Source: Escherichia coli (GTDB lineage Bacteria > Pseudomonadota > Gammaproteobacteria > Enterobacterales > Enterobacteriaceae). Taken from it: DNA of 64,000 nt. The position numbers and the translations under genes are program-made. The first letter of the stretch is position 1; every line of letters begins with the position of its first letter. Under the pieces are notes generated by a model. The model saw only the letters and a program-made list of their open reading frames with translations. It had not been told where the DNA came from and did no database searches. Shown one piece after another: positions 13,206 to 36,769 of the stretch. The stretch is taken from assembly GCF_016026235.1 (NCBI RefSeq), contig NZ_CP065613.1. One strand, given 5' to 3'.

Positions 13206-13953
<748 letters not shown>

Positions 13954-14007
13954 ACCTGATTTCAGTATCATGCCCAGTCATTTCTTCACCTGTGGAGCTT
14001 TTTAAGT

Positions 14008-14283
14008 ATGGCACGCGTAACTGTTCAGGACGCTGTAGAGAAAATTGGTAACCGTTTTGACCTGGTACTGGTCGCCGCGCGTCGCGCTCGTCAGATGCAG
14101 GTAGGCGGAAAGGATCCGCTGGTACCGGAAGAAAACGATAAAACCACTGTAATCGCGCTGCGCGAAATCGAAGAAGGTCTGATCAACAACCAGATCCTCG
14201 ACGTTCGCGAACGCCAGGAACAGCAAGAGCAGGAAGCCGCTGAATTACAAGCCGTTACCGCTATTGCTGAAGGTCGTCGTTAA
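14008..14283 (+). CDS. rpoZ: RNA polymerase omega subunit
   Basis: 91 aa [39 protein letters not shown]... Confidence 0.95.
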
Positions 14284-14301
14284 TCACAAAGCGGGTCGCC
14301 C

Positions 14302-17106: not shown

Positions 17107-17111
17107 GTGCC

Positions 17112-20044: not shown

Positions 20045-20046
20045 TT

Positions 20047-21252
20047 TTAACCCGCAAAAATCGGCAACATCAAATACAGCTTAATCACCAGCGCGTTAAC
20101 GATATCAATAAAGAACGCACCGACCATCGGCACTACCAGGAAGGCCATGTGCGACGGGCCAAAACGTTCAGTGATCGCCTGCATGTTGGCGATTGCCGTT
20201 GGTGTTGCACCGAGGCCAAAACCACAGTGACCCGCAGCCAGCACTGCCGCATCGTAGTTTTTGCCCATCATGCGCCAGGTAACGAAGATGGCATACAACG
20301 CCATGAAGATGGTCTGTACCACCAGAATCGCCAGCATCGGCAGCGCCAGCGAAGCCAGCTCCCACAGTTTCAGCCCCATCAACGCCATCGCCAGGAACAA
20401 CGACAAGCTTACGTTACCCAGCACGGATACCGCACGCTCAAAGACGCGGTAAAAGCCCATTATTGACAGACCGTTGCTCAGAATCACGCCAACAAACAGT
20501 ACACAGACGAAGGTCGGCAGTTCAAAAGCAGTGCCAGCCAAAAGTTGCGCAACAATTTTCCCCACCGTCAGGCAGATAGCAATCAGCGCGATAGTTTCAA
20601 TCAGCACCAACGAGGTGATCATGCGGCCCACATCCGGCTTTTCAAACGCCGTCGGGACTTCCTGGTCATCCGGAATACCGTTCGGCGTGGTGGAGTGTTT
20701 CACCAGATAGCGCGCTACCGGACCGCCAATCAAGCCGCCCAGCACCAAACCGAACGTTGCACAGGCCATCGCCACTTCCGTCGCATTGGTGAAGCCATAA
20801 CGTTCAATGAACAATTTACTCCATGCAGCTCCCGTACCGTGACCGCCGGAAAGCGTAATAGAACCGGCCAACAGCCCCATCAGCGGATCAAGCCCTAACA
20901 GGCTAGCCATCCCAATGCCAATGGCATTTTGCATCACCAACAGACCAACAACCACAATCAGGAAGATGCCAACCACACGCCCACCGGCACGCAAACTGGC
21001 AATGTTGGCGTTCAGGCCAATGGTGGCGAAGAATGCCAGCATTAACGGATCGCGCAGGGACATATCAAAGTTGACTTCCCAGCCCATGCTTTTTTTCAGT
21101 ACCAGTAGCGCCAGCGCCACCAACAAACCACCCGCAACAGGTTCCGGTATGGTGTATTTCTTCAAAAAGGAGACGGAATGGACCAACTTACGCCCGAGCA
21201 GCAACGTCAGCGTTGCGGCAACAAGCGTTGCTAAAGTATCGAGATGAAACAT
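20047..21252 (-). CDS. gltS: sodium/glutamate symporter
   Basis: 401 aa MFHLDTLATLVAATLTLLLGRKLVHSVSFLKKYTIPEPVAGGLLVAL..., polytopic. Confidence 0.95.
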   Translation of the reverse strand: MFHLDTLATLVAATLTLLLGRKLVHSVSFLKKYTIPEPVAGGLLVALALLVLKKSMGWEVNFDMSLRDPLMLAFFATIGLNANIASLRAGGRVVGIFLIVVVGLLVMQNAIGIGMASLLGLDPLMGLLAGSITLSGGHGTGAAWSKLFIERYGFTNATEVAMACATFGLVLGGLIGGPVARYLVKHSTTPNGIPDDQEVPTAFEKPDVGRMITSLVLIETIALIAICLTVGKIVAQLLAGTAFELPTFVCVLFVGVILSNGLSIMGFYRVFERAVSVLGNVSLSLFLAMALMGLKLWELASLALPMLAILVVQTIFMALYAIFVTWRMMGKNYDAAVLAAGHCGFGLGATPTAIANMQAITERFGPSHMAFLVVPMVGAFFIDIVNALVIKLYLMLPIFAG

Positions 21253-23043: not shown

Positions 23044-24753
23044 ATGAAATTTATTGGGAAGCTGCTTCTCTACATTCTCATCGCTCTGTTAGTGGCGATC
23101 GCTGGCCTCTATTTTCTTCTGCAAACCCGCTGGGGAGCAGAACATATCAGCGCATGGGTTTCCGAGAATAGCGACTATCATCTGGCCTTCGGGGCGATGG
23201 ATCACCGTTTTTCCGCGCCATCTCATATCGTGCTGGAGAACGTCACGTTTGGTCGTGATGGCCAGCCCGCGACCCTGGTGGCCAAAAGTGTCGACATTGC
23301 GCTAAGCAGTCGGCAACTGACCGAACCACGCCATGTCGATACCATCCTGCTGGAAAACGGGACGCTGAATCTCACCGACCAGACCGCGCCGCTACCGTTC
23401 AAAGCCGATCGTCTGCAACTGCGTGATATGGCGTTTAATAGCCCGAATAGCGAATGGAAACTGAGCGCGCAGCGGGTAAATGGCGGCGTAGTTCCGTGGT
23501 CACCAAAAGCCGGTAAAGTGCTGGGTACGAAGGCGCAGATTCAGTTTAGTGCCGGATCGCTTTCGCTCAATGATGTTCCTGCCACCAATGTACTGATTGA
23601 AGGCAGTATTGATAACGATCGCGTTACGCTGACTAACCTGGGTGCCGACATCGCCCGCGGGACATTAACCGGAAACGCGCAGCGTAACGCCGACGGCAGC
23701 TGGCAAGTGGAAAACCTGCGCATGGCGGATATACGTCTACAAAGCGAAAAATCGCTAACCGACTTCTTTGCGCCATTACGCTCTGTCCCGTCGTTGCAGA
23801 TTGGTCGCCTGGAAGTGATCGATGCTCGTTTGCAAGGTCCGGACTGGGCGGTGACCGACCTCGATCTCAGCTTGCGCAACATGACCTTCAGTAAAGATGA
23901 CTGGCAGACACAGGAAGGCAAACTGTCGATGAACGCTAGCGAGTTCATTTATGGTTCGCTGCATTTATTTGACCCGATTATAAACGCGGAATTTTCCCCG
24001 CAGGGCGTAGCGCTGCGCCAGTTCACCAGCCGCTGGGAAGGGGGTATGGTCAGAACGTCAGGGAACTGGCTGCGTGACGGGAAAACGTTGATCCTTGATG
24101 ATGCGGCAATTGCCGGGCTGGAATATACCTTGCCGAAAAACTGGCAACAGTTGTGGATGGAAACGACACCCGGTTGGTTAAACAGCCTGCAACTGAAGAG
24201 ATTTAGCGCCAGCCGCAATCTGATCATTGATATCGACCCTGACTTCCCGTGGCAGCTCACCGCGCTCGATGGTTACGGTGCCAACCTGACGCTGGTTACC
24301 GATCATAAATGGGGCGTCTGGAGTGGCTCGGCGAATCTGAATGCCGCCGCCGCGACATTCAATCGTGTTGATGTTCGTCGCCCGTCGCTGGCGCTGACCG
24401 CCAACAGCAGCACGGTGAATATCAGCGAACTGAGTGCATTTACTGAAAAAGGCATTCTGGAAGCCACTGCCAGTGTTTCACAAACGCCACAACGTCAGAC
24501 CCATATCAGCCTGAATGGACGCGGTGTGCCGGTGAATATTTTGCAACAGTGGGGATGGCCTGAATTACCGTTGACTGGCGACGGCAATATTCAGCTTACC
24601 GCCAGTGGCGATATTCAGGCCAATGTCCCGCTGAAACCTACGGTTAGCGGGCAATTGCATGCCGTGAACGCCGCAAAACAGCAAGTGACTCAAACCATGA
24701 ATGCGGGCGTCGTTTCCAGTGGCGAAGTTACATCGACGGAGCCGGTGCAGTAA
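23044..24753 (+). CDS. yicH: AsmA-family protein YicH
   Basis: 569 aa from MKFIGKLLLYILIALLVAIAGLYFLLQTRWGAEHISAW... with an N-terminal membrane anchor. Confidence 0.9.
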   Translation: MKFIGKLLLYILIALLVAIAGLYFLLQTRWGAEHISAWVSENSDYHLAFGAMDHRFSAPSHIVLENVTFGRDGQPATLVAKSVDIALSSRQLTEPRHVDTILLENGTLNLTDQTAPLPFKADRLQLRDMAFNSPNSEWKLSAQRVNGGVVPWSPKAGKVLGTKAQIQFSAGSLSLNDVPATNVLIEGSIDNDRVTLTNLGADIARGTLTGNAQRNADGSWQVENLRMADIRLQSEKSLTDFFAPLRSVPSLQIGRLEVIDARLQGPDWAVTDLDLSLRNMTFSKDDWQTQEGKLSMNASEFIYGSLHLFDPIINAEFSPQGVALRQFTSRWEGGMVRTSGNWLRDGKTLILDDAAIAGLEYTLPKNWQQLWMETTPGWLNSLQLKRFSASRNLIIDIDPDFPWQLTALDGYGANLTLVTDHKWGVWSGSANLNAAAATFNRVDVRRPSLALTANSSTVNISELSAFTEKGILEATASVSQTPQRQTHISLNGRGVPVNILQQWGWPELPLTGDGNIQLTASGDIQANVPLKPTVSGQLHAVNAAKQQVTQTMNAGVVSSGEVTSTEPVQ

Positions 24754-24761
24754 AAATAAGG

Positions 24762-24787
24762 ACGCTAGCGGATATCAGCGCTAGCGT
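24762..24787 (-). terminator. stem-loop between convergent yicH and the last gene of the sugar island; probable terminator of the island operon
   Basis: ACGCTAGCG-(8 nt loop)-CGCTAGCGT perfect 9-bp stem; on the minus strand it is followed by CCUUAUUUUUAC. Confidence 0.4.
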
Positions 24788-24796
24788 TCCCCGTTA

Positions 24797-25477
24797 TTAG
24801 CGCAAAATTCCATACTCACTGCACAATAACCATTTCACCGGTTCATCTTCTTCTATCGCAGGAAAACGTCCTCCCGGCTCAAGAAAATAGTTATCGTGTT
24901 GGTCATCATTTACCATCGAAATTTCCCAGCCGAGAACAAACGCTTTTTCCGCCCAGAAGCGATGATACAGACGCGGCGGCAGGCAAATGCCCTGCCCCGG
25001 CTTTAACACCAGCGTTTCACCAGGTTTCATGGTACGCCGCTGACCATCAACACTCACGGTAATGACTCGTTGATCATCACAGAGACTGGCTTCGTTGGCC
25101 CAGGCCAACTGCATGCATAAGTCTCCACCGCCCCGATTGAGGATATCTTCCATTTTGTGGGTGTGAAAATGCCAGGGAGTCTGCTGATCTTGTTGGATCT
25201 GCAACATTTTCTCAGCATACGGTTTTGGATATGCCGCCGACCCCAGCGCGCCGTTGCGCATCGTTAGCAGTGTTAGTCCCGTTTGGTTGAAATCACCACG
25301 ACCAAAATCGGTGATATCCCAACCGAGCTGTAAGTCGACCACTTCTTGCCAGTTATCCCGTTCCCGCTGCAGCCAGTCATCCACCGTAAAATAGGCGAAC
25401 TCTGGCAAACAAACGCGGAAGGTCTGCGCAATGGCATGTGCTTTATCAATAACATAATTAATTTGTGAACGTTTCAT
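24797..25477 (-). CDS. cupin-fold sugar isomerase-like protein (D-lyxose/D-mannose isomerase family-like)
   Basis: 226 aa from the ATG at 25477 (GGAGAA Shine-Dalgarno 6 nt upstream); MKRSQINYVIDKAHAIAQTF... with a His/Glu-rich cupin core (WHFHTHKMEDIL). The family call is a recalled similarity, not searched. Confidence 0.75.
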   Translation of the reverse strand: MKRSQINYVIDKAHAIAQTFRVCLPEFAYFTVDDWLQRERDNWQEVVDLQLGWDITDFGRGDFNQTGLTLLTMRNGALGSAAYPKPYAEKMLQIQQDQQTPWHFHTHKMEDILNRGGGDLCMQLAWANEASLCDDQRVITVSVDGQRRTMKPGETLVLKPGQGICLPPRLYHRFWAEKAFVLGWEISMVNDDQHDNYFLEPGGRFPAIEEDEPVKWLLCSEYGILR

Positions 25478-26390
25478 TGGCTTCTCCGTTGCGCATAGCA
25501 AGCCAGGCAGCGCCACGCATTCCGCTACTGTCGCCGTGCTGTGCTTTTACAATGGGAGTGGTGAATTGATCGGTGAAAACCAGTGGAGTGACTTCTGCGT
25601 TCAGATCGGTGATAAGCAGTTCCACATTCGAAAGCCCGCCGCCGATCACAATCACGCCAGGGTCAACAACATTAACGATGGTTGCGAGCGTGCGGGCAAG
25701 CTGTTGGCGAAAACGTGCCACCTGCTGCATGGCACAAGCATCACCACGTTGTGCCAGGGTGACAATCGCCGCAGGAGTGAGCAAGTTACCAGTCATCTGT
25801 TGATAGCGTTCACTAAAACCGCTGCCGGAAACAAACGACTCCACGCAGTTGTGTTTGCCGCAATAGCAACTGACTGATGGACCATCTTCCTGCTCCGTAT
25901 AGCCTGGCAACGTGATATGACCGCATTCGGCAGCATTTCCCCAGGCCCCTATAAACGGTCGTTGCTTGATGGCAATGCCACCGCCGCAGCCCGTACCAAG
26001 CGTAATACCAAATACCACGTCATAATCTTGCCCCGCACCGTCGCAAACTTCTGATAGCGCGAAACAGTTACCATCATTGGCTATCACCACCGGTTGCCCA
26101 AGCAATTGCTGCAAATCAGCCTGTAACGCATGACCGTTAATCACCTGAATATTCGCGTTTTTAATCAGGCCAGTGAGTGGCGAGATACTGCCGGGTAAGG
26201 CGATCCCTGTCAGCATCGGTCGTTGAACGTCCCGCCTAATCTGCTCGATAAGTGCCACAACGCATGAGACAAATTGTTGATATGTCGACTTTTGCGTCGG
26301 GCAGCGGTAACGGCGAATCTCCCAGCCATGCGCATCCATGACGACGGCGGCGATTTTGGTCCCACCAATATCCAACCCCAGATAGTGCAT
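25458..26390 (-). CDS. ROK-family sugar kinase
   Basis: ATG at 26390 (AAGGAA Shine-Dalgarno); MHYLGLDIGGTKIAAVVMD... N-terminal ATP-binding motif and a Cys/His zinc motif (CYCGKHNCVE) typical of the ROK family. Confidence 0.85.
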   Translation of the reverse strand: MHYLGLDIGGTKIAAVVMDAHGWEIRRYRCPTQKSTYQQFVSCVVALIEQIRRDVQRPMLTGIALPGSISPLTGLIKNANIQVINGHALQADLQQLLGQPVVIANDGNCFALSEVCDGAGQDYDVVFGITLGTGCGGGIAIKQRPFIGAWGNAAECGHITLPGYTEQEDGPSVSCYCGKHNCVESFVSGSGFSERYQQMTGNLLTPAAIVTLAQRGDACAMQQVARFRQQLARTLATIVNVVDPGVIVIGGGLSNVELLITDLNAEVTPLVFTDQFTTPIVKAQHGDSSGMRGAAWLAMRNGEANETFTN

Positions 26391-26437
26391 ATCTCGTTCC
26401 TTGTTGCGTAAAAGGCGGGTCACCCCGCCCTTCTGGC

Positions 26438-27298
26438 TTAGTACAGTGATGCTTTACCGAGCGAACCGAACAGTTTCATTTTGTGGCGAATGACTTCCCG
26501 CGCCGCGTTAATCGCATCCGGATAGATGACGTTCGGGTCCCACCAGCTCTCTTTAGCGAGAATTTCACGCACTTTCTGGAAATAGGCGTATTTCATATCG
26601 CTGGAGATATTGATTTTGCCGACGCCGAGCGTAACTGATTCAGCAATCTCCGCGTCCGGGTTTGCCGAACCACCGTGTAGTACCAGCGGAATATCAATAC
26701 GTCCGGCAATGTCGCGCAAAATGTTCATTTGCAGCTTCGGTTGCATCCCTTTTGGATAGATGCCATGCGCTGTACCAATCGCCACAGCCAGTGTGTCGGC
26801 ACCTGTACGAGCAATAAAATCGGCGGCCTGCGCCGGATCTGTGTAGGTCACTTGTGAAACACCACCTTCTACCGACGTTCCTGTTTGTCCGATGGTTCCC
26901 AGTTCACCTTCAACCGACACGCCAACCGCGTGAGCGAGGCGAACCACTTCTGCGGTCAGCGCCACGTTTTCTTCATACGGCAGCAGCGAACCGTCGATCA
27001 TTACTGAGGTAAATCCGCAGCGAATCGCACGCAAAACATGCTCTACAGAGGCACCATGATCGAGGTGCAGTACAAACGGGACTGGACTACGCTGGGTAAT
27101 TTCGCGAACGTGAGCGAAAAAGGCATCGCCCACAAAATCATGTTCGCTGGGATGGATGGCAATAATCGCCGGAGTATTTGTCGCTTCTGCTTCATCCACG
27201 ACTGCGCGAAGGAAACAGTTATCCGCCACATTAAATGCGCCAATGGCAAAGCCGTGCTGGCGGGTAGGTTGCAGTAATTCTTTCATCGAAACTAACAT
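26438..27298 (-). CDS. class II ketose-bisphosphate aldolase (GatY/KbaY/FbaA family), copy 1
   Basis: 286 aa with LHLDHGAS metal-binding motif and ...AIGTAHG.. / LVLHGGS motifs. Confidence 0.85.
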   Translation of the reverse strand: MLVSMKELLQPTRQHGFAIGAFNVADNCFLRAVVDEAEATNTPAIIAIHPSEHDFVGDAFFAHVREITQRSPVPFVLHLDHGASVEHVLRAIRCGFTSVMIDGSLLPYEENVALTAEVVRLAHAVGVSVEGELGTIGQTGTSVEGGVSQVTYTDPAQAADFIARTGADTLAVAIGTAHGIYPKGMQPKLQMNILRDIAGRIDIPLVLHGGSANPDAEIAESVTLGVGKINISSDMKYAYFQKVREILAKESWWDPNVIYPDAINAAREVIRHKMKLFGSLGKASLY

Positions 27299-27378
27299 GT
27301 TAAATCTCCAGTTTCAGCGTGTAGTCCGCCCTGCCGGTGCGTTATTGCACTGGCATAAAGGCCATGACAGAAAATGAA

Positions 27379-28230
27379 TCAGGCTTTGCCGATAGAGCCG
27401 CTCGCCTGTAAATACGGTGTAATCGCTTCTTCGAAGGCCAGTTCCATAGCTTTCAGCGCGTCCACCAGTTCAATGGATATATCGTGACAGAGGGTATGCA
27501 GGAGCGCGGATTTCCCCCGTTCAAAAATGGCCGCCCCCACGTTGATTTTTGCTACCCCCAGCGTCGTACAGAGCTGGAGCTGATCGAACGGCGTACCGCT
27601 ACCGCCATGTAATGCCAGAGGCACGCTCGAGCAGTGGAAAATCTCCGCCAGACGCTGAAAATCAATAGCAGGTACAACACCAGGCGCGTACATGCCGTGC
27701 GCCGTACCCACAGAGACAGCCAGTAGATCAATGCCTGTCTGCGCGATAAACGGTTCCACATCAGTGGGTTGCGTCATCATGTCTGCATTGGCGGCCTGGT
27801 CGTAACGCGGCGCATCTGCCAGATGGCCCAGTTCGCCTTCCACGCAGAGCTGCGCGCTGGCGGCGAGTTCCACCACCGCCCTGGTCTGGCGCACGTTTTC
27901 CTCCAGGGGAAAAGCAGAAGCATCAATCATTAATCCGCTGAAACCAGCACGAAACGCCTGACGAATACAGTCCGGATTTTTGCCATGATCAAGCGCCAGA
28001 GTGACCGGTACTGAAGCAGATTCCGCGAGCGTTTTAACCACTGCCGCCGCGACGGGTGCAGGAAAATGCGCCAGATGCCCCTGATATAGATTGAGAATGA
28101 TCGGAGCGCGATTCTTCTCCGCCACGCGGATAGCTGCGTAAGCACTTTCCAGATTCATACAGTTGATCGCCAGCAAGGCGTAATGTTCATGCCAGGCTTT
28201 CATCACCATACTTTTCATATCGGCAAACAT
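27379..28230 (-). CDS. class II ketose-bisphosphate aldolase, copy 2 (divergent paralog)
   Basis: 283 aa with LALDHGKN, SVGTAHG and LALHGGSG motifs; GGAGG Shine-Dalgarno upstream. Confidence 0.85.
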   Translation of the reverse strand: MFADMKSMVMKAWHEHYALLAINCMNLESAYAAIRVAEKNRAPIILNLYQGHLAHFPAPVAAAVVKTLAESASVPVTLALDHGKNPDCIRQAFRAGFSGLMIDASAFPLEENVRQTRAVVELAASAQLCVEGELGHLADAPRYDQAANADMMTQPTDVEPFIAQTGIDLLAVSVGTAHGMYAPGVVPAIDFQRLAEIFHCSSVPLALHGGSGTPFDQLQLCTTLGVAKINVGAAIFERGKSALLHTLCHDISIELVDALKAMELAFEEAITPYLQASGSIGKA

Positions 28231-28241
28231 AGGGCCTCCGG

Positions 28242-29333
28242 TTATTCGAGGGTGAAAGTGATCTCTTCATCTTTCAGCTTTTGATCGCTCAGTTCGTCAA
28301 ACTCTTCGTCGCGTTCCGTTACCGGTTTCTTCCAGAGTGAAAGCATCACGCCACAAATCACCGTGCCTATACCCAGCGCCAGGCAAAACAGCAGAGGATG
28401 GGTGAACAGAGGCACAACAAACATGCCGCCATGCGGAACCGGACTCTCCACGCCCCACACCATGATTAAGCCGCCCGCGACCGCCGATGCCACCACACAA
28501 GATCCCACTACTCGCAGCAGGTCACGCGCGGCGATCGGAATGACTCCTTCAGTGATCATGCAGATCCCCATCGGAAACGCGGCTTTCAGCGCCTCGCGCT
28601 CCGCACGGGTGTATTTATGGCGTGTCAGTAAGAACGAAAGTGTGATGCCAAACGGAGGGATGATTGAGCCGACAAATTTCACGGCTTCTGGTCCGTAGAC
28701 GCCACTGACCAGCAAGCCATCGGAAAACAGCGACATGGTTTTGTTGACCGGACCACCGAAATCGAAGGTTGCCATCGCGCCAAGTATGGCCCCCATCAGG
28801 AAGCGCGATCCGCCCTGCATCGACTCGAGCAAATGAATCAGTGCTTCTTGTAACCAGGCGATGGGTTTACCAATCAGCGTCATCATTAACAGCCCACCGA
28901 TAATGGTGCTTAATACCGGCAACACCATGATTGGCATGAGTCCTTGCATCGACTGCGGCAGGCGGATATAGCGTTTAAGTAGCAAAATGGTGTAGCCCAC
29001 CAGGAAACCACCCAACATACCGCCAATAAATCCGGTATGGATTTGCCCACAGAGAAAGCCGACAATCAGACCCGGGGCAAATCCGGGACGATCGGCAATA
29101 GAATAGGCAATTGCCGCGCTAATCAGCGGCACAATCAGCCCCATTCCCCAGCCGCCAATCTGATTAAGCATCCACGGGATTGTTCCTGTTTTTTCACCAA
29201 CATCTGTACCGCCAAGAACTTGCCCCAACGCAATACATATCCCGGCGGCCACAATAAGGGGTATCATCCACGAGATGCCGGTTAATAAATGTTTTTTAAT
29301 TTCCTGTGAAACCGGAATTTTATTGTCTTTCAT
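28242..29333 (-). CDS. PTS fructose-family EIIC permease component
   Basis: 363 aa, highly hydrophobic and polytopic, adjacent to the EIIB and EIIA genes. Confidence 0.85.
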   Translation of the reverse strand: MKDNKIPVSQEIKKHLLTGISWMIPLIVAAGICIALGQVLGGTDVGEKTGTIPWMLNQIGGWGMGLIVPLISAAIAYSIADRPGFAPGLIVGFLCGQIHTGFIGGMLGGFLVGYTILLLKRYIRLPQSMQGLMPIMVLPVLSTIIGGLLMMTLIGKPIAWLQEALIHLLESMQGGSRFLMGAILGAMATFDFGGPVNKTMSLFSDGLLVSGVYGPEAVKFVGSIIPPFGITLSFLLTRHKYTRAEREALKAAFPMGICMITEGVIPIAARDLLRVVGSCVVASAVAGGLIMVWGVESPVPHGGMFVVPLFTHPLLFCLALGIGTVICGVMLSLWKKPVTERDEEFDELSDQKLKDEEITFTLE

Positions 29334-29357
29334 ATTAAGATCCCTCCAGTATAAGGA

Positions 29358-29672
29358 TCATTTGTTTCCCAGTGATTTTTCGACCTTTTCAAGAAATTGA
29401 ACGGGCGATTTAATGACGATCTCTGTCTTTACTCGCACAATACGTTTATTGGTGAAGCGTTCTTCTCCTTTTATTTTCACATCTACAGCAAGAATCACGA
29501 CGTCAGCAGCAGAGATATCTGCCGCCTGTAATTCATTTTCTGTACCAATGGTTCCCTGGGTTTCAACTTTAATGGTATGGCCCAGAGCTTTTGCTCCTTT
29601 GATTAACTTTTCACGAGCAATATAGGTATGAGCAATACCCGCCGTACAGGCGGCAACACAGACAATATTCAT
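29358..29672 (-). CDS. PTS fructose-family EIIB component
   Basis: 104 aa MNIVCVAACTAGIAHTYIAREKL..., with the phospho-cysteine loop CxxGxAHT. Confidence 0.85.
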   Translation of the reverse strand: MNIVCVAACTAGIAHTYIAREKLIKGAKALGHTIKVETQGTIGTENELQAADISAADVVILAVDVKIKGEERFTNKRIVRVKTEIVIKSPVQFLEKVEKSLGNK

Positions 29673-29689
29673 GACATACTCCCTGTTAT

Positions 29690-30160
29690 TTAGCAGACAT
29701 CGGATTGTGCATACTGACTAAAGAGATCAATGATTTTTTGCGGACTCGTCTCAACTAACAATTGTTCTATGATGTCATCATCCGCCAGCGCGCCCGCGAC
29801 CTGGGAAAGTAAACGGATATGGGTGGTATTTTGATCTTCAAGACGTACCGCAAATAAAATAATACAGCGCACGCTACTACCATCCAGCGTTTCCCAAGGA
29901 ATATCCTGGCGGGTACGGCCAATTGCCAGCGTAGTATTAATTACCGCAGAAGATTTACCATGCGGGATCGCAATATGATTTTCAAAACCAGTCGAGCCTT
30001 CCGCTTCGCGCTGCCAGACATCTTTAATAAAGGTTTCCCGACAATCGATCGCACCATCTTTTTTGAGAAGATTAGTTAATTCTTCAATCGCCTCCGCTTT
30101 ATTCGTCGCTTGCATATCTAAAATAACGCGATTCGTATTCAGGATTTTTGTTATGTCCAT
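29690..30160 (-). CDS. PTS EIIA component (fructose/mannitol type)
   Basis: 156 aa with the phosphorylatable histidine context IAIPHGK. Confidence 0.85.
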   Translation of the reverse strand: MDITKILNTNRVILDMQATNKAEAIEELTNLLKKDGAIDCRETFIKDVWQREAEGSTGFENHIAIPHGKSSAVINTTLAIGRTRQDIPWETLDGSSVRCIILFAVRLEDQNTTHIRLLSQVAGALADDDIIEQLLVETSPQKIIDLFSQYAQSDVC

Positions 30161-30186
30161 TCGTCATACCTCATAAAATTCTGACA

Positions 30187-31740
30187 TTAAATTTCAACGA
30201 CCCGAGACGTCGCATGATGTAATTTTTCCGTAATCACCACTTCAGTGATCCGCTTAATATCGGCATCATTAAAAAAAGCGGTAACATAAGCGACCGGCAT
30301 AGTGACTGTAGGCAAATTAATGGTCGAAATAATCAGTTCGATATTGTCAGGCAAAACCTGTGATAAATTCGCTGCTGAAATAACATCAACAATCGTCCAT
30401 TCAGGAAATGCTCGCAGAATACGGCTTTTCAGTAGATGCGAAGTTCCGATTCCGGTTGAACAGACCAGTAATACACGTTTACGGGCAATTTGCCGCTCCA
30501 TCGCAGCCTGAAAATGAACGGTCAGGTAACCCACTTCATCCTCGCTCACTGCATTCTCACCCCAGGTTTTAAATACCTGATTCACCACATATTGCGTCAA
30601 CCGCCAGACATCCGCTAATTCTGCTTTAATATCTTCCAGCAATGGATTACGGATATGAATACGATAATTTAGTCGGTTAATCAGCGGTTTAATATGCACC
30701 AATAAGCCATCATATAATGCGCTGTCTTCACTAAAATCGCAGTCCACGATGTCACTGAATACCGTAATTAAACGCCAGGTAATAAGACGCGCTTCATTGC
30801 TGGCCTGCATATGTGAAATAATGCTAACATCTTTTTGTCCATCAATCGCCACACCTGATGAAATGATATATTGATAAATAAACCAGACTTCATCATCGGG
30901 CAATGTATGTGCAATTCGTTGTTCTATCTTATGAATCATCTGACTGGCAACATTAAAGATATTTTCATCATATTGCCTGGTTTGATCTTCTTCTCTTGAT
31001 AACGCATTCCCGTGCGTGTTGCGATACATCATAATAAGGATGTGAGTAAAAATGTTAACGTAATAAGGTTCTCCCAAAGACCAACTTAATTCATTTTCCA
31101 TATCCAGTAACAATGACTGGACAAATAACACCTCTTCTTCTCCAAAATAATGGACTAATGCTTTATAACTTCCGGGATCCAGACGTGAATACACGACACC
31201 TTGCGGCTCATTATGGTTAATAATGCCGTTAATCAGTAATGCCATTGCCTGTCGGACTTGCCCTTCACTACCTTCAATATGCGTACCACTTGGGCTGCGG
31301 ATCAACGATAACCCCAACGGCGCAAGCCAGGACTCAATTACTCTCAGGTCATTAACAATAGAGGCTCCGCTGATAAAGTAGCGTTCTGACAATTTACTGA
31401 TCGACGTTTCATTCGGTGTTTCACTTAATAACTGCGACGCTATTTTAACGCGCCTAGCATTATTCATTACACCATCAATCTCTTCACATTCTGCTCCCAA
31501 CAAATGATCAAGATGCAGCAAATCAGCAATATTCTCCGCACTTAACATCACACCCGCGCCAGCACGCTTCTCAACATTTATTCTCCATTGCCCCAGCCAT
31601 TGCTCAAGTAAACGTAAATCACGTTGAATGGTTTTTTCCGAAACATTTAAATAGCCGGCAATCTTAACAATAGTCGTATATTCCCTTCGAGGTAAAAGGA
31701 ATCGTAATAATCTGTTTTGTCGCGAGGTAATCATTTGCAT
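30187..31740 (-). CDS. PTS-regulated transcriptional activator (Mga/BglG-like; HTH plus PRD plus EIIB/EIIA-like domains)
   Basis: 517 aa; N-terminal HTH (YTTIVKIAGYLNVSEKTIQRDLRLLE), central PRD-like regions and a C-terminal PTS EIIB-like segment (RVLLVCSTGIGTSHLL). First gene of the island operon. Confidence 0.8.
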   Translation of the reverse strand: MQMITSRQNRLLRFLLPRREYTTIVKIAGYLNVSEKTIQRDLRLLEQWLGQWRINVEKRAGAGVMLSAENIADLLHLDHLLGAECEEIDGVMNNARRVKIASQLLSETPNETSISKLSERYFISGASIVNDLRVIESWLAPLGLSLIRSPSGTHIEGSEGQVRQAMALLINGIINHNEPQGVVYSRLDPGSYKALVHYFGEEEVLFVQSLLLDMENELSWSLGEPYYVNIFTHILIMMYRNTHGNALSREEDQTRQYDENIFNVASQMIHKIEQRIAHTLPDDEVWFIYQYIISSGVAIDGQKDVSIISHMQASNEARLITWRLITVFSDIVDCDFSEDSALYDGLLVHIKPLINRLNYRIHIRNPLLEDIKAELADVWRLTQYVVNQVFKTWGENAVSEDEVGYLTVHFQAAMERQIARKRVLLVCSTGIGTSHLLKSRILRAFPEWTIVDVISAANLSQVLPDNIELIISTINLPTVTMPVAYVTAFFNDADIKRITEVVITEKLHHATSRVVEI

Positions 31741-32034
31741 TTTTTACCCTTATCACAGATTAAGAAGCCCCATGAGGAAGAGCTTCAGTTGCCATCTCTG
31801 AGGGTAAATATAAAGCAGAATAATTTCACAACAATACTAAAATCTGTCCGTAATCCGGACAGTGATAAAACAAAGCAAGGCGGTTAAGGGATATTTTTCA
31901 GCACAGATCACATTTTCGCGATGAATAATCGTGATCATGCTCGCAAATACGATGGAAGAAATATTTATTACCAGATGTGAGATTATTTACCGGATACGAC
32001 ACGAAACCATTCGTATCCGGCATTCTTCAATAGA

Positions 32035-34353
32035 TTACAACGTAATTGTCAGCGCATTCCCTTGAGGAGTCACCACCAGTCCCTGCTCACTTTCAGCCTG
32101 CGAACCGCCTTGCAGACCATTTACTTTCACAACATTGCGCAAGCACAGCGTCCAGTTCTTCGCCTCGCCCGCACCAGTCACAGTAATCGTGTTGCCAGTA
32201 CGTGCTGCTTTTAAAGTAAAGATCACCGAACCGTCAGCAGCGGGCACTTCACAGACGGCTTCATGCCCGTCTTGCAGTTTAAAGAGCTGGAATGCCGTAC
32301 CTTCGTGCCACGCGTAATCGGGACGTTGATCGTTGTTGCCCAGCGCCAGTAGGGTGTTATCACGCACATAAACGGGCAGACTCAGGAAGCCGTGCTGCTG
32401 TTTATGCCAGCGACTACCGTCGAGCTCATCGTTGTGCCACAGGTGTGTCCAGCGACCTTCCGGCAAGTAGAACTGCACCTCGCCCTCCTCAGTGAACACC
32501 GGAGCAACCATCACGTTGTCGCCTAGCATGTATTGACGGTCAAGGTAATCACAAGCCGGATCGTCCGGGAACTCCATCATCATGGCCCGCATCATCGGCG
32601 TACCCCGCGCGTTCGCACGCGCAGCTTCACGATACAGATACGGCATCATGCGGCATTTCAGTTGCGTGAAGAAGCGCACCACATCACAGGACTCATCATC
32701 GTAGGCCCACGGCACACGATAAGATTTGCTGCCATGTAAACGACTATGGCTGGAGAGCAAACCAAACGCGCACCAGCGTTTGTAAACGTGCGCCGGCGCG
32801 GTATTCTCAAAGCCGCCGATATCGTGGCTCCAGAAGCCAAAACCTGAAAGGCCAATAGACAAACCACCGCGCAGGCTTTCCGCCATTGATTCGTAGTTAG
32901 CGTAACAGTCGCCACCCCAGTGTACCGGGAATTTCTGCGCACCGACGGAGGCCGAGCGGGCAAACAAGACAGCTTCTTCCTCACCAACGGTGTCCTTGAG
33001 CACGTTCCACACCAGTTCGTTGTAGATGTACGCATAATGGTTATGCATTTTCTGCGGATCGGAACCGTCAAACCACTGAACATCAGTTGGGATACGTTCG
33101 CCAAAGTCGGTCTTAAAGCAATCAACGCCCATCGCGACCAGACCTTTCAGTTTGTCGGCGTACCATTTGCAGGCATCCGGATTGGTAAAGTCATAAATCG
33201 CCAGACCTGGCTGCCATTTATCCCACTGCCATAGCGAACCGTCCGGGCGTTTGAGTAAATAGCCTTTCTCTTGTAACTCTTTAAAGACGGGGGATTTTTG
33301 ACCGATATAGGGGTTAATCCAGACGCAGATTTTCAGCCCTTTCGCTTTCAGGCGGCGGATCATCCCTTCCGGGTCAGGGAAAGTCAGCGGGTCCCACTCA
33401 AAATCGCACCACTGGAAGGCTTTCATCCAGAAACAGTCAAAGTGGAAAACATGCAGCGGCAGATTGCGTTCCGCCATACCATCGATAAAGCTGTTTACCG
33501 TCGCTTCGTCGTAGTTGGTGGTAAATGAAGTGGTTAGCCACAGGCCGAAGGACCACGCGGGCGGCAGCGCCGGACGACCAGTAAAGCGGGTATAACGATC
33601 AAGTACCGCTTTCGACGTCGGGCCGTCGATAACAAAGTATTCGAGATATTCACTCTCAACGCTGAACTGCACTTTGGAGACTTTCTCCGATCCCACTTCA
33701 AAAGAGACACACTGGGGATGATTGACCAGTACCCCATAACCACGGTTAGTCATGTAGAACGGGATATTTTTATACGCCTGTTCAGTACTTGTGCCGCCGT
33801 CCCGGTTCCAGGTCTCTACCGTCTGGCCATTGCGCACCAGGGCAGTAAAGCGCTCTCCCAGACCGTAAACTGTTTCGCCAACGCCAAGATCAAGCCGCTC
33901 AAACATATAATTGCGTTGATTATTCGTGTCCTGCACGTAGCCATTATTTTTCACCTGACTACCGGTAATACGTTCGCCGTTGCGCAGAAAATCCAGTGAC
34001 CAGAACTCACCTTTGCTGACACGCGCGCTTAAGTTGCCACTTTTAAACTCAGCATAACGTTCTGTGTTTTCGATTGTGACCTTCACGTCCTGCAAAATAT
34101 TGAGCGGATAATGAGGGCCGTTATTCAGCGCCCCCTGAAAATGCTCAATCCGCACCCCGACAATACCTTCCTGTGGGGAGAAAAAGCGCAGCGTAAATAA
34201 AGGCGTGTCAAGCTGCCATGTACGTTCACGTACATCACGGGGGGCAGCATAGACCACCATTTCATTACCCTGCTGTTCAACCTCGAACACCTGAAGCGGG
34301 TGAATCAAATTGAGGCCAGGTTGAATCAACCAGTTTCCATCGCTAATTTTCAT
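32035..34353 (-). CDS. yicI: alpha-xylosidase (GH31)
   Basis: 772 aa [38 protein letters not shown]... with the GH31 catalytic region (WINPY..., KTDFGE). Confidence 0.95.
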
Positions 34354-34362
34354 TGCCGTTCC

Positions 34363-35745
34363 TTAGTTCTGCACTTCTTGAGAGGTGAATTGTTGCTGGC
34401 AACGGCGTTTGCCCTGAGCCAGCTGTTCCATAACGGTTTTCAGATTGTGCGTCGTGAGTGAGTAGTAGCGTTTAGCGATAATCGCGCTCAGCAAATAACA
34501 GATCGCCGGAACAATCGTGAATAGCGCGATAATGATGCTAATCGTGGCGCTGTTCTGCGCTTTTTCTGCCGCATCATATCCGCCATAAGCCAGCATCCAG
34601 CCGATAAGAGCGCCGCCGAAGGCCAACCCCAGTTTGAGCACAAACAGCGTGCCAGCAAAACTGATCCCGGTCAGGCGTTTACCATTGCACCACTCGCCGT
34701 AATCGACGGTATCGGACATCATTACCCACTGGATAGGTGTCACCAGTTGATGCAACACACCAATCACGAAGATGAAGACAAACATAGTGATGCTGGCCTG
34801 CATGGGAACAAAGAACATTGCGAGGCTAATCACTGCCAGCAGGGCGTTCGTCCACCAGAAGATAGTGACTTTACATTTCCAGTCGGTCAGCGGTTTTGCC
34901 AGTGCGGAACCAATCAGGTTACCCACGCAATAAGTGGTGAGAAAAGCGACAAACACTTCCGGCGTACCCAAAATCCATGTGACGTAATACATCATCGCCC
35001 CACCGCGTACGCACACCGCCAGGATATTGAAAATGGTTAGTAAACCGACAATCCGCCACTGGTCGTTTTGCCAGATATCACGTAAATCTTCCCGCATAGA
35101 CGTCGTTGTAGGTGGTGCTTCAACGCGTTCTTTAGTGGTGAAGAAACAGAATGCCAGCATCATGAATGCCACCACGGAAAGGACCGCGATACCGCCCTGG
35201 AAACCGAGTGGTTTATTATCACCACCAATTAAATTAACCAGTGGCATCATCAGAACAGTAGAGAGCATGCCTCCCGCGGTCGCCAGCACAAAACGCCAGA
35301 ATTGCAGCGAGATACGCTGAGTCGGGTCATTGGTGATTACACCACCCAATGCGCAGTAAGGGATATTGACGACGGTATAAAGTAAGGTAAGTAGGGTGTA
35401 AGTAATTGCTGCATAGATCATTTTTCCGTTCATAGTGAGATCTGGCGTGCTATAGGCCAGTACACAGACGATCCCGAATGGCAGTGCGCCAAACAGTACC
35501 CACGGACGAAATTTACCCCAGCGAGAGCGCGTTCGATCGGCCAACAATCCCATGCAAGGATCGGAAATCGCATCCAGTGCACGAGCGACCAAAAACATGG
35601 TTCCGACAAATCCGGCAGGAATGCCAAAAATATCGGTATAAAAGAACATCATATATAACATTACGTTATCGAAAATAATGTGGCTGGCGGCGTCTCCCAT
35701 GCCATAACCAATTTTCTCTTTAACGGACAACACTTCACTCTTCAT
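34363..35745 (-). CDS. yicJ: GPH-family sugar:cation symporter
   Basis: 460 aa from MKSEVLSVKEKIGYGMGDAASHIIFDNVMLYMMFFYTDIFGI...; the listed ORF extends 19 codons upstream. Confidence 0.9.
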   Translation of the reverse strand: MKSEVLSVKEKIGYGMGDAASHIIFDNVMLYMMFFYTDIFGIPAGFVGTMFLVARALDAISDPCMGLLADRTRSRWGKFRPWVLFGALPFGIVCVLAYSTPDLTMNGKMIYAAITYTLLTLLYTVVNIPYCALGGVITNDPTQRISLQFWRFVLATAGGMLSTVLMMPLVNLIGGDNKPLGFQGGIAVLSVVAFMMLAFCFFTTKERVEAPPTTTSMREDLRDIWQNDQWRIVGLLTIFNILAVCVRGGAMMYYVTWILGTPEVFVAFLTTYCVGNLIGSALAKPLTDWKCKVTIFWWTNALLAVISLAMFFVPMQASITMFVFIFVIGVLHQLVTPIQWVMMSDTVDYGEWCNGKRLTGISFAGTLFVLKLGLAFGGALIGWMLAYGGYDAAEKAQNSATISIIIALFTIVPAICYLLSAIIAKRYYSLTTHNLKTVMEQLAQGKRRCQQQFTSQEVQN

Positions 35746-36037
35746 CTGCTTTTCCTTGATGCTATAGGGGTGCTGAGACCGATAACGCATTTTGTAAACC
35801 ATCCCTGTGAGAGCGAATATTCCGATATCTGGTTATTAATTTATGATTCTTGTTTTATGTGATCGTGGTAGCGTTAATTCCGCTCATATATCATTGTAAA
35901 ATATGGGTTTTATATGAACTATAATGCTTTCGTGATAATACGCTGCGTGTATTAGGCGGAAAAAACTGATCTGGGGGATGTAGAAACTCAAGGAAGTAGC
36001 TATAATGCGCCCCGCCTCCATGTAGCAATCGAGGCGC

Positions 36038-36132
36038 GGAAGATCGTCGTCTCCGGTGAGGCGGCTGGACTTCAAATCCAGTTGGGGCCGCCAGCGGTCC
36101 CGGGCAGGTTCGACTCCTGTGATCTTCCGCCA
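36038..36132 (+). tRNA. selC: tRNA-Sec (selenocysteine tRNA)
   Basis: GGAAGATCGTCGTCTCCGGTGAGGCGGCTGGACTTCAAATCCAGT...GATCTTCCGCCA: 95 nt, long acceptor stem and extended variable arm, TCA anticodon in the loop (CTTCAAATC), genomically encoded CCA. Confidence 0.9.
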
Positions 36133-36769
36133 AAATGCCTCTTCTGACGTTCTCCAATCCCTTGTAATACTGTCAATCCAGATATTTTCTACTGCTCAAT
36201 ATTCAATCGGCTTCAGGAATACCTGGTCAAAGGTTTTGTGATGGACGATGAGCAGCTGAAGAATCCGCCTGTCGGTTCTTCTGTCCTCGAACGCATCCGC
36301 GATATTCGCGCCAGCATGCGCCGTGTTTATTTGCAGGTGATTTGCCCCCCTGCTGACTCTCAGCCAACTGTATCGCCATTAAGGTGAAGATGTTGTTTTA
36401 CACGCTCCAGAACACCCTTTTTTATACGACTATTCTATTCCTTTAACAGCTGGCGAAAAAAACTGACCTATAAACCTCACCAATAATCAGACTGCCATCA
36501 AGATTAATTTGTTAATTTAATATATCAAATCAACTTGTTTTATTTTTACTATCAAAAATAGCTCATTGCCTTACTATAATTAATATATAAATTCGGTAAT
36601 TAATTCTTAACATGCTTTTGCTAATAATCTCAATTGCTGGCCCTATAATATTGCGCTAGCATTGCTTTCTGGTTGTATCAGCGATACTCAAAAATTCTTA
36701 ATACAATACTCATTCGACTGGTACTTATTTGTAACTCAGTTATATTTTGTCGCTCGGTGATTCAGAAGA

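Follow-up and report, generated by a model that had tools for sequence, protein, structure and literature searches.

The frz operon of extraintestinal pathogenic Escherichia coli at the yicH-yicI site: locus identity, predicted control elements and conserved core

The segment at positions 24754-32034 of the analysed stretch of E. coli DNA (the window, 64,000 nucleotides) is, with little room for doubt, the frz operon of extraintestinal pathogenic E. coli (ExPEC), a chromosomal, non-mobile unit of eight genes for PTS-dependent sugar catabolism that is located between yicH and yicI. As the diagnostic primers, the amplicon sizes and the site and size of the yicH-yicI segment all agree with frz, this is an operon that was already known and not a novel one. 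What the present work adds is a motif composed of a palindrome and a promoter, and the distinction of a conserved core, consisting of the PTS and one aldolase type, from a ROK kinase and a cupin protein that are add-ons.

Identity and gene set of the locus

A sequence-only reading of this DNA had proposed the frz operon of ExPEC, and the comparison with that locus bore the proposal out. Two published pairs of diagnostic frz primers match the window with 0 mismatches. The frzorf4 pair delimits 565 bp at 28625-29189, inside gene 4 (EIIC), and the frz pair 843 bp at 30493-31335, inside gene 1 (the regulator), both sizes being as published. From the yicH stop to the yicI stop the window contains 7,281 bp, and the same site in the avian ExPEC strain BEN2908, described as GR27, measures 7,283 bp and includes the frz operon (PMC12928451). 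No difference of substance from the BEN2908 frz was found; compared with other E. coli copies, the allele in the window shows a divergence of about 1-2%. The 2009 description of frz by Rouquet et al. in J Bacteriol reportedly gives, in its abstract, the same gene content as the window.

Bounded by the yicH stop (24753) on one side and the yicI stop (32035) on the other, eight ORFs lie on the minus strand, in the order PRD activator, EIIA, EIIB, EIIC, two class II aldolases, ROK kinase and cupin isomerase. Their co-directional and tightly spaced layout, as claimed before, is evident from intergenic gaps of 26, 17, 24, 11, 80 and 47 nt (gene 1 to gene 7) and from an overlap of 20 nt between genes 7 and 8, and a Shine-Dalgarno-like sequence is found 5' of each gene. 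In RefSeq, a 99.9%-identical genome and strain E24 are annotated with this gene set in this order. None of the eight genes is disrupted in the window, whereas in the closest genome, FDAARGOS_943, EIIA contains a stop and EIIC a frameshift. The earlier gene calls stand with respect to the number and families of the genes, but not for two start codons: the ROK kinase and the cupin protein had been started at the GTG codons of the longest ORFs, but 26390 and 25477 are the most likely start positions; RefSeq uses these, and Shine-Dalgarno sequences precede them.

The assigned families were recovered with NCBIfam matches far beyond chance. Gene 2 (29690-30160) encodes a fructose-family EIIA of 156 aa (TIGR00848, 127 bits, above the cut-off) with His67 in an IPHG motif, gene 3 (29358-29672) a fructose-family EIIB of 104 aa (TIGR00829, 100 bits, above the cut-off) with Cys9 in a CTAGIAHT motif, and gene 4 (frz orf4, 28242-29333) a fructose-family EIIC of 363 aa (TIGR01427, 312 bits, above the cut-off). 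Gene 5 (27379-28230) encodes a divergent class II aldolase of 283 aa, here aldolase-1, which stays below every NCBIfam cut-off (best model TIGR01859, 209 bits), and gene 6 (26438-27298) a class II aldolase of 286 aa, here aldolase-2. The two are only 33% identical, match family profiles with E-values of 1e-61 and 5e-158, and both possess the DHG, GTAHG and LHGGS metal/catalytic motifs; structures of AgaY and KbaY are among their best PDB matches. Gene 7 (25458-26390, with the RefSeq start) encodes a ROK-family sugar kinase of 310 aa with a DIGGT ATP motif (family E-value 2e-94), for which the closest NCBIfam model is the fructokinase NF007108 with 316 bits versus a cut-off of 443. Gene 8 (24797-25477) encodes a cupin protein of 226 aa from the D-lyxose/D-mannose isomerase family (family E-value 6e-81; NF051472, 271 bits, below the cut-off of 350) with preserved HFH, E and YH.FW motifs. 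All catalytic and phospho-acceptor motifs of the island proteins are retained according to a motif check. The differing codons of the island genes in two E. coli lineages are mostly synonymous (42 versus 16 non-synonymous), and the enzymes are under purifying selection.

Distribution and origin

The segment occurs in 1,602 of 5,426 complete E. coli genomes (30%), and the remainder match the flanks only. Its absence from the K-12 junction was correctly predicted, as K-12-like genomes possess a yicH-yicI spacer of 52 nt at this place. A hairpin on the minus strand directly past the yicI stop (31990-32021) is homologous to the hairpin of that K-12 spacer, and therefore the extra DNA proper is confined to approximately 24757-31989. 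The sequence-only reading had also called the island inserted. The presence/absence polymorphism stands, but insertion is only one way to read it, given that the yicI-frz-...-yicH order also exists in Klebsiella aerogenes.

It is thus conceivable, if somewhat doubtful, that no insertion into an ExPEC ancestor took place and that yicI-frz-yicH is an old arrangement of the Enterobacteriaceae that was lost in K-12-like lineages or moves from strain to strain by homologous recombination in the flanks. The K. aerogenes locus reads yicJ-yicI-frz (8 genes)-rpiR-GH4-EIICB-yicH in the same orientation, and a Salmonella contig also joins frz with yicJI. In addition, the E. coli segment contains no integrase or transposase genes and has no direct repeats at its borders, and the low G+C content of the genes for the regulator, EIIA and EIIB is a family-wide property and no sign of a recent import. 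The divergence between the window and E24 is at odds with such an ancestral state, as it amounts to 0.3-1.4% in the island and to 2.6-3.3% in the flanking yicH and yicI, which fits a later spread of the island. Also at odds with it are the presence of the same 8-gene cluster at the mltB-recA site in another enterobacterium, the 6-gene form that Pectobacterium and Pantoea carry between parC and parE, and the fact that only 30% of the complete E. coli genomes contain the segment.

Across phyla, EIIC is accompanied by an aldolase of the aldolase-2 type. EIIC is 73-77% identical to its Firmicute counterparts, and three Firmicute loci each have a single aldolase, with which aldolase-2 shares 69-71% identity. 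Aldolase-1 is found in the Enterobacterales versions only, among the loci examined. The PTS and one aldolase type thus form the conserved core of the system, and the ROK kinase and the cupin protein are an add-on.

Regulator, predicted control elements and role

Gene 1 (30187-31740, minus strand) encodes a PRD-containing activator of 517 aa, here FrzR, as seen from Pfam domains, a homologue alignment and the primers. That a Mga-type activator with PRDs heads the operon had been proposed before, and Pfam now resolves two HTH_11/Mga domains, two PRDs and an EIIB-like domain, and detects neither a CAT RNA-binding domain nor a C-terminal EIIA domain. An alignment of 15 homologues, the most distant with 38% identity, shows no variation at H233, H349 and C427. 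Structure matches are weak and point to AtxA, AcpB and the PRDs of LicT. The Firmicute relatives of FrzR are about 40% identical and 130-170 residues longer; in the Firmicute loci examined, the regulator measures 653-675 aa, only one aldolase is encoded and the TGTCC/GGACA palindrome is absent.

The predicted FrzR operator (31831-31861, minus strand) is the palindrome TGTCC-N7-GGACA (31861-31845) followed by TTTAGTATTGT (31841-31831), and this element abuts the -35 hexamer of a predicted sigma-70 promoter (31807-31834, minus strand; -35 TTGTTG at 31834-31829, 16-nt spacer, -10 TATATT at 31812-31807). Each of the nine proteobacterial frz-like loci examined contains one copy of TGTCC-N7/8-GGACA followed by ATTTAGTATTGT, in every case upstream of the regulator gene. 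The motif occurs a single time in the 64-kb window, and it is found neither in the empty yicH-yicI site nor in the three Firmicute loci. A simple consensus scan did not flag the promoter. An equivalent arrangement of TTGTnn, 16-17 nt and TAnATT, placed behind the palindrome, is present in seven genera. Farther upstream, a conserved block (31904-31945, minus strand) comprises a CRP-like TGCGA-N6-TCACG (31945-31930), an inverted repeat, GATCAC-N19-GTGATC (31936-31906), and AAATGTGATCTG (31915-31904). The predicted 5' untranslated leader contains a stem-loop GAAGC...GCUUC (31764-31786, minus strand) with no T run behind it. Four genera have a hairpin in this position, for which covariation gives weak evidence. 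At the other end, an intrinsic-terminator-like hairpin (24762-24787, minus strand) of 9 pairs (6 G-C) lies directly after the cupin gene and is followed by the T run CCTTATTTTT; 9 nt separate it from the convergent yicH stop. It marks the operon end, in line with the stem-loop noted earlier. The yicI-proximal hairpin at 31990-32021 has no T run on the minus strand and therefore does not qualify as a canonical terminator between yicI and the regulator gene.

In the likely mechanism, FrzR would be a DNA-binding activator that binds TGTCC-N7-GGACA next to the -35 hexamer and turns on its own operon. By analogy to MtlR, ManR and LicR, HPr-dependent phosphorylation of PRD2 (H349) would activate it, and phosphorylation of its EIIB-like domain (C427) would keep it inactive as long as the Frz PTS has no substrate. 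The phosphate would pass from EI and HPr to His67 of EIIA, to Cys9 of EIIB and on to a sugar that enters via EIIC. The class II aldolases could then split the phosphorylated ketose, directly or following a second phosphorylation, into dihydroxyacetone phosphate and a second fragment, and the ROK kinase and cupin may form an accessory branch that converts a free aldose (mannose- or lyxose-like) to the phosphorylated ketose. All steps of this scheme are inferred, and its promoter, operator and phosphorylation sites are predictions; established in this work are the locus identity, the domains, the intactness of the genes, conservation and distribution. Two observations complicate the route from the PTS product to the aldolase substrate: a PfkB-type 1-phosphate kinase is absent among the operon genes, and the 5- and 6-gene frz versions of other bacteria lack any kinase.

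In the literature, frz is described to favour type 1 fimbriae production and, when oxygen is restricted, survival in late stationary phase. The BEN2908 genome paper reports that fitness, adhesion and internalisation are likewise favoured, and that frz is associated with virulent strains (PMC12928451). Frz could be mainly a sensory or regulatory PTS that signals the host or nutrient state to other genes, for example the fim switch or yicJI, via FrzR or PTS phosphorylation, and that does not serve growth on a sugar. The reported phenotypes are stress fitness and fim switch orientation and name no growth sugar, a 2021 review still places frz under "unknown/not clearly known functions", and read-through from yicJI is possible because the yicI-proximal hairpin lacks a T run. 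Nevertheless, we consider a mainly sensory role unlikely. The enzymes are intact and under purifying selection, the high identity of EIIC and aldolase-2 to their Firmicute counterparts points to a conserved catalytic job, and the operator motif occurs only once in the 64-kb window. A sensory role does not exclude sugar catabolism, with which it is compatible.

Substrate and comparison with known systems

The earlier statement that the substrate is not evident was corroborated: all the enzymes score below the cut-offs of those NCBIfam equivalog and subfamily models that specify a substrate. Aldolase-2 is the sole enzyme above a cut-off (NF006042/PRK08185, 525 bits versus 405), and its PRK08185 subfamily carries no substrate name. 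No substrate assignment for frz was found in the literature searched, and a full-text literature search found no functional study of frz after the 2021 review. That the genes belong to another, already defined operon (the galactitol/tagatose or N-acetylgalactosamine pathway with GatYZ/KbaYZ, fru for fructose, mng for mannosylglycerate, one of the fructose-like frv/frw/fry systems of K-12 or the D-lyxose isomerase cluster of O157) is highly improbable: FruA, MngA, GatY and KbaY are among the best NCBIfam models and the cupin matches Z5688, but all such models stay far below their cut-offs. Thus the two aldolases reach only 148 and 184 bits with the KbaY model (cut-off 542) and 185 and 246 bits with the GatY model (383), FruA IIBC scores 297 versus 793 and the D-lyxose/D-mannose isomerase model 271 versus 350 bits, the segment contains no GatZ/KbaZ-like and no PfkB-type kinase gene, and the published frz primers match the window exactly.

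Like the GatYZ/KbaYZ pathways for tagatose-1,6-bisphosphate, frz has a PTS followed by a class II aldolase, and these aldolases belong to one Pfam family. Unlike those pathways, it has no GatZ/KbaZ partner and no PfkB-type kinase, and its PTS is of the fructose family, whereas the gat and aga systems have galactitol- and mannose-family transporters. The cryptic K-12 operons frv, frw and fry resemble frz in their split fructose-family EIIA, EIIB and EIIC and in the unassigned substrate, and their models are the next-best matches, albeit below cut-off (NF007787 263 versus 426, NF007783 108 versus 135, NF007389 91 versus 151 bits). The operons frv, frw and fry are not known to contain aldolases, a ROK kinase or a cupin.

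The Listeria monocytogenes cluster lmo2133-lmo2138 was reported as a frz homologue and as product of a horizontal transfer between Enterobacteriaceae and Listeria. By description it comprises a BglG-family regulator, a fructose-like PTS and two class II aldolases, but the gene list of that paper contains no ROK kinase and no cupin. The frz cupin aligns end-to-end with the D-lyxose isomerase Z5688 of E. coli O157:H7 (PDB 3KMH/3MPB; E-value 1e-63), with which it shares the cupin fold family and identical HFH, E and YH.FW positions. As a predicted isomerase, it is a paralogue of Z5688 that sits in another gene neighbourhood and scores below the NCBIfam cut-off (271 versus 350 bits). FrzR, finally, stops after its EIIB-like domain without the C-terminal EIIA-like domain of the MtlR/ManR/LicR group of Bacillus subtilis, but it has the two N-terminal HTH/Mga domains, two PRDs and EIIB-like domain of these regulators and of Mga, AtxA and AcpB. 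Its invariant PRD2 histidine and EIIB-like cysteine parallel His342 and Cys419 of MtlR.

The frz operon at the yicH-yicI junction

Between the stop codons of yicH (24753, plus strand) and yicI (32035, minus strand) lie eight co-directional open reading frames on the minus strand, which with the RefSeq start codons encode a regulator, here named FrzR (30187-31740), the PTS components EIIA (29690-30160), EIIB (29358-29672) and EIIC (28242-29333), two class II aldolases designated aldolase-1 (27379-28230) and aldolase-2 (26438-27298), a ROK kinase (25458-26390) and a cupin isomerase (24797-25477). All eight reading frames are uninterrupted in the window, and each is preceded by a Shine-Dalgarno-like sequence. 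The gene spacings are, in order, 26, 17, 24, 11, 80 and 47 nt, there is an overlap of 20 nt between the last two genes, and a nine-pair hairpin with a T run behind it (24787-24762, minus strand) ends the unit 9 nt short of the yicH stop codon. The same genes in the same order are found in the RefSeq annotation of FDAARGOS_943, the genome closest to the window (99.9% identity over 24000-33000), and of the urinary isolate E24. In K-12-like genomes, the gap between yicH and yicI measures 52 nt and contains one hairpin. As this hairpin is retained beside yicI in the window according to the alignment (32021-31990), the extra DNA proper spans approximately 24757-31989. At least 80% of the 24000-33000 query is present in 1,602 of 5,426 complete E. 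coli genomes, while the others match the flanks only. The sequence-only reading had described a tightly spaced, partly overlapping unit of eight minus-strand genes that is absent from the K-12 junction and closes with a stem-loop just before the convergent yicH stop, and in all these points it holds.

This island is the frz operon of extraintestinal pathogenic E. coli (ExPEC), and as such an already known feature, in agreement with the sequence-only reading. The identity was examined by mapping two published frz diagnostic primer pairs on the window. The frzorf4 primers match at 28625-28644 and 29170-29189, inside the fourth gene, and the frz-FP/RP primers at 31316-31335 and 30493-30512, inside the regulator gene; both pairs match without a single mismatch and give the published amplicon sizes of 565 bp and 843 bp, and shuffled window sequences contained no primer matches. 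The idea that the locus could represent another already defined sugar operon is rejected, since the frz primers match exactly and models with a named substrate remain below their cut-offs. The abstract of Rouquet et al. from 2009 is said to list a PTS activator, EIIA, EIIB and EIIC of the fructose family, two class II ketose-bisphosphate aldolases, a ROK kinase and a cupin protein, all of which are represented in the island. The genome paper on the avian ExPEC strain BEN2908 (PMC12928451) gives genomic region 27, “yicH..yicI”, as 7,283 bp holding a 7,227-bp frz operon, and describes the region as complete in the compared ExPEC and AIEC strains and missing from K-12; the corresponding interval in the window is 7,281 bp. 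According to papers citing Rouquet et al. 2009, frz forms a single transcriptional unit, supports survival when oxygen is restricted in late stationary phase, enhances fitness, adhesion and internalisation, favours the production of type 1 fimbriae via the fim switch, and is more common in virulent avian strains.

Some further observations concern the closest relative and the remainder of the window. In FDAARGOS_943 (7243-9160 and 11035-15000 of the comparison locus), frz is decaying, with an internal stop in the EIIA gene and a frameshift in the EIIC gene, and yicI is cut short by an IS66-family element; yicI and both PTS genes are intact in the window. The tRNA-Sec gene selC (36038-36132, plus strand), a classic integration site of pathogenicity islands, lies just beyond yicJ without a large attached island; a setC-like MFS gene (36770-37954) comes next, and then yicL, nlpA and other genes usual for the core genome. 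In the nearest relative, a rhuM fragment is annotated directly after selC and is possibly the vestige of an island. An IS4-family insertion sequence of 1,290 bp (44301-45590, or 44288-45603 with its target duplication) has terminal inverted repeats of 22 nt, a 13-bp target duplication (AGTGGTCATCCCC) and a transposase that matches NF033591 with 262 bits. The insertion disrupts adeQ, which encodes an adenine permease, close to the 5' end of the gene, at a site that is free of the element in the otherwise 99.9% identical FDAARGOS_943. Two small overlapping reading frames between nepI and yicN (approximately 41784-42450, plus strand) are annotated in the nearest relative as a RelE/ParE-family toxin and an HTH antitoxin.

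The regulator FrzR and its upstream region

FrzR consists of two HTH_11/Mga domains, two PRDs and one EIIB-like domain (residues 422-494), so that a PRD-containing, Mga-like activator indeed opens the operon, as the sequence-only reading had stated. A domain search over the whole protein revealed neither a CAT RNA-binding domain nor a C-terminal EIIA-like domain, the latter because the protein ends at residue 517. This architecture places FrzR among the PRD activators that bind DNA, such as Mga, MtlR and ManR, and the RefSeq label “BglG family transcription antiterminator” is a generic name. An RNA-binding antiterminator such as BglG, SacY or LicT can be dismissed, as the CAT domain is missing, the N-terminus is of the HTH_11/Mga type and the leader hairpin is not followed by a T run. 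The NCBIfam models of LicT and GlcT match FrzR over the PRDs only, with 46-65 bits against cut-offs of 300-320, and an Rfam search of 24000-37000 returned tRNA-Sec as the sole match. Three residues are invariant in 15 homologues down to 38% identity, namely H233 in PRD1, H349 in PRD2 and C427 in the VCSTG motif of the EIIB-like domain. In the Bacillus subtilis regulator MtlR, HPr activates the protein by acting on a PRD2 histidine, and the cognate PTS inactivates it via a cysteine in the EIIB-like domain. By analogy, this mode of control via a PRD2 histidine and an EIIB-like cysteine most likely applies to FrzR as well.

The gap of 294 nt between yicI and the regulator gene is well conserved in comparison with Klebsiella aerogenes, a Salmonella contig and another enterobacterial contig. 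Its strongest conserved element is the palindrome TGTCC-N7-GGACA (31861-31845, minus strand), which is followed by the likewise conserved TTTAGTATTGT (31841-31831, minus strand). Pectobacterium, Pantoea and Vibrio possess the palindrome with an 8-nt spacer and then ATTTAGTATTGT, also upstream of the regulator gene. Among 13 loci compared, all nine proteobacterial frz-like loci have a single copy of the pattern, and it was found neither in the empty K-12-like site nor in the three Firmicute loci; in the 64-kb window, it is observed once against 0.24 expected occurrences. In every genus, a TAnATT follows 16 or 17 nt downstream of the TTGTnn inside this combined motif. In the window, these hexamers correspond to TTGTTG (31834-31829) and TATATT (31812-31807), both on the minus strand, and they are predicted to constitute a weak -35 and a -10 element, with a predicted activator site adjoining the -35. 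A simple consensus promoter scan did not report this candidate promoter. The predicted transcript would start near 31800 and have a leader of approximately 60 nt. A hairpin in the leader (31786-31764, minus strand) occurs at the matching place in four genera, with weak covariation and no T run.

Further upstream, a conserved block contains the CRP-like sequence TGCGA-N6-TCACG (31945-31930, minus strand) as well as an inverted repeat GATCAC-N19-GTGATC. The CRP-like site lies approximately 137 nt upstream of the predicted start, which is an unusual distance, so we assign no role to this block. Since no T run follows the yicI-proximal hairpin on the minus strand, read-through from yicJI into frz is plausible. 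Reperant et al. reportedly described in 2011 the co-transcription of yicJI and frz, and also a palindromic motif common to both promoter regions. A motif shared by the upstream regions of frz and yicJI in the window was sought by local alignment, which gave weak matches only (scores 16-20); as the TGTCC/GGACA palindrome moreover occurs just once in the window, the shared motif is not reproduced.

The PTS, the enzymes and a possible pathway

Protein families were assigned with NCBIfam models and their curated cut-offs. EIIA (TIGR00848, 127 bits against 103.5), EIIB (TIGR00829, 100 against 76.9) and EIIC (TIGR01427, 312 against 157.6) all exceed the thresholds, and by these matches the three proteins are assigned to the fructose subfamily of the PTS fructose-mannitol family (TC 4.A.2). 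The phospho-acceptors are present as His67 of EIIA (IPHG) and Cys9 of EIIB (CTAGIAHT). Aldolase-2 belongs to the unnamed PRK08185 subfamily of class II aldolases (525 bits against a cut-off of 405), whereas aldolase-1 remains under every NCBIfam cut-off, the best match being a class II fructose-bisphosphate aldolase model with 209 bits. The two share 33% identity, and both retain DHG, GTAHG and LHGGS, the Asp-His pair and the two further metal-ligand histidines that serve as criterion for Pfam F_bP_aldolase. Both match structures of class II fructose-bisphosphate and tagatose-bisphosphate aldolases with E-values of 1e-40 to 1e-58. In the comparison with GatY and KbaY, a tagatose-1,6-bisphosphate aldolase is rejected for either paralog, as all GatY, KbaY and tagatose-aldolase models stay below cut-off and the locus has no GatZ-like gene. 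The ROK kinase carries DIGGT (the DxGxT ATP motif) and the zinc motif CYCGKHNC, and with 316 bits against a cut-off of 443 for its nearest model, Mak/fructokinase NF007108, it is not an equivalog. The nearest model of the cupin is the D-lyxose/D-mannose isomerase NF051472 (271 bits against 350). Over its full length, the protein can be aligned with the E. coli O157 D-lyxose isomerase Z5688 of known structure (3KMH, E 1e-63), with which it shares the HFH, E and YH.FW positions. The earlier assignment of a fructose-family PTS, two different aldolase paralogs, a ROK kinase and a cupin isomerase is thus confirmed, for the latter two at the level of the family.

The same reading considered the substrate not evident, which is borne out by the named-substrate models that stay below cut-off, by a 2021 review that places frz among genes with “unknown/not clearly known functions”, and by a literature search (frz genes, D-lyxose isomerase and PTS, yicJI, phosphotransferase) in which no substrate study for frz was found. 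In the most likely mechanism, the phosphate would pass from PEP via EI and HPr to His67 of EIIA and Cys9 of EIIB, and from there to the sugar entering through EIIC. A sugar that drains phosphate from the PTS would in turn lead FrzR to switch the operon on. The aldolases would then convert a ketose phosphate to dihydroxyacetone phosphate and a second fragment. None of the frz versions compared contains a PfkB-type sugar-1-phosphate kinase; a bisphosphate could be formed by a housekeeping kinase, or the monophosphate could be cleaved directly. IolJ and YdjI, which belong to the Pfam family of the frz aldolases, act on monophosphates. A free sugar would be fed in or salvaged by the ROK kinase and the cupin; the closest characterised relatives use free fructose or mannose in the case of the kinase, and lyxose or mannose in that of the cupin. 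A further proposal, which we put forward as speculative and rather improbable, is that the PTS and the PRK08185-type aldolase form an uncharacterised route. In this route, a ketose-1-phosphate made by the PTS would be cleaved directly, with dihydroxyacetone phosphate and an aldehyde or aldose in free form as the products. The enterobacterial ROK kinase and cupin would salvage the free aldehyde or aldose, and the sugar would be of host, plant or gut origin.

Origin of the island and comparison with related loci

The island had been described as inserted between yicH and yicI; the polymorphism of presence and absence stands, and insertion is one possible reading of it. Neither integrase or transposase genes nor flanking direct repeats were found in the E. 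coli island. The genes of the regulator, EIIA and EIIB have a G+C content of 41-44% and the other island genes of 49-55%, but a mosaic origin is rejected because the same pattern is seen in the Klebsiella, Salmonella and Pectobacterium clusters, and the low G+C is therefore no evidence of recent import. In a comparison of the window with E24, divergence is 0.3-1.4% for the island genes, against 3.3% and 2.6% for the flanking parts of yicH and yicI, which fits a spread of the island after the lineages had split. The codon differences of the island between two E. coli lineages amount to 42 synonymous versus 16 non-synonymous ones. The identical neighbourhood in K. aerogenes, on the other hand, points toward an old arrangement or an exchange through the conserved flanks. 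As the evidence on gain and loss conflicts, “inserted” is to be read as “present or absent”.

Homologues of the regulator with 52-78% identity occur in Salmonella, K. aerogenes, Citrobacter, Phytobacter, Buttiauxella, Pectobacterium, Brenneria, Pantoea, Erwinia and Vibrio, and longer versions (653-684 amino acids, approximately 40% identity) in Bacillaceae and Paenibacillus. The K. aerogenes locus reads yicJ-yicI-frz-rpiR-GH4-EIICB-yicH, with all eight frz genes in the neighbourhood and orientation known from E. coli. The three additional sugar genes between frz and yicH (17018-21181 of that locus), which encode an RpiR/SIS regulator, a GH4 glycosidase and a PTS EIICB, suggest that the interval between yicI and yicH is a recurrent site for sugar-utilisation cassettes. 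On a Salmonella contig, a transposase fragment precedes the eight frz genes and yicJ-yicI follows, and another enterobacterium has all eight between mltB and the recA region. Pectobacterium and Pantoea possess a six-gene form without ROK kinase and cupin, located between parC and parE. In the Vibrio locus (10001-14394), EIIA, EIIB and a FrzR-like regulator (59% identity) are present, but the EIIC is an unrelated one (36% identity), and a gene of the ribulose-phosphate 3-epimerase family replaces those of the aldolases. The locus also contains the TGTCC-N8-GGACA/ATTTAGTATTGT motif, and the frz regulatory module seems to be re-used there for a different sugar.

Two Paenibacillus loci consist of the regulator, EIIA, EIIB, EIIC and one aldolase. 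In Paenibacillus pabuli (161-5474 of the locus), mannan-utilisation genes (ABC transporter, GH130, GH113) are found a few genes upstream of this five-gene core, with a kinase-like gene and a glycosyltransferase gene in between; this proximity, which may be coincidental, hints weakly at a substrate related to mannose. In a Peribacillus locus, the regulator is divergently transcribed and lies next to EIIA, EIIB, EIIC and one aldolase, and genes for DJ-1, ROK, a type I phosphomannose isomerase and a small Lyx_isomer-like protein are found nearby. The EIIC proteins of Paenibacillus and Peribacillus are 73-77% identical to that of E. coli. The one aldolase of the Firmicute loci shares 69-71% identity with aldolase-2 but only 31-32% with aldolase-1, so that the conserved core consists of the PTS and the PRK08185-type aldolase. 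In these comparisons, aldolase-1 is an addition seen in the loci of Enterobacterales, and the pair of ROK kinase and cupin is a further one in Enterobacteriaceae. A relationship of frz to Listeria lmo2133-2138 and horizontal transfer between Enterobacteriaceae and Listeria have already been described.

The locus itself is therefore not new; under this name, frz has been known since 2009 as a fitness and typing marker of ExPEC and APEC, diagnostic PCR schemes make use of it, and our comparative predictions leave its classification unchanged. What the comparison with the related systems provides are handles on the frz sugar and on the link to type 1 fimbriae, in the form of the predicted operator and promoter, the three invariant residues of the regulator, and the minimal PTS-aldolase core that is shared with Firmicutes.
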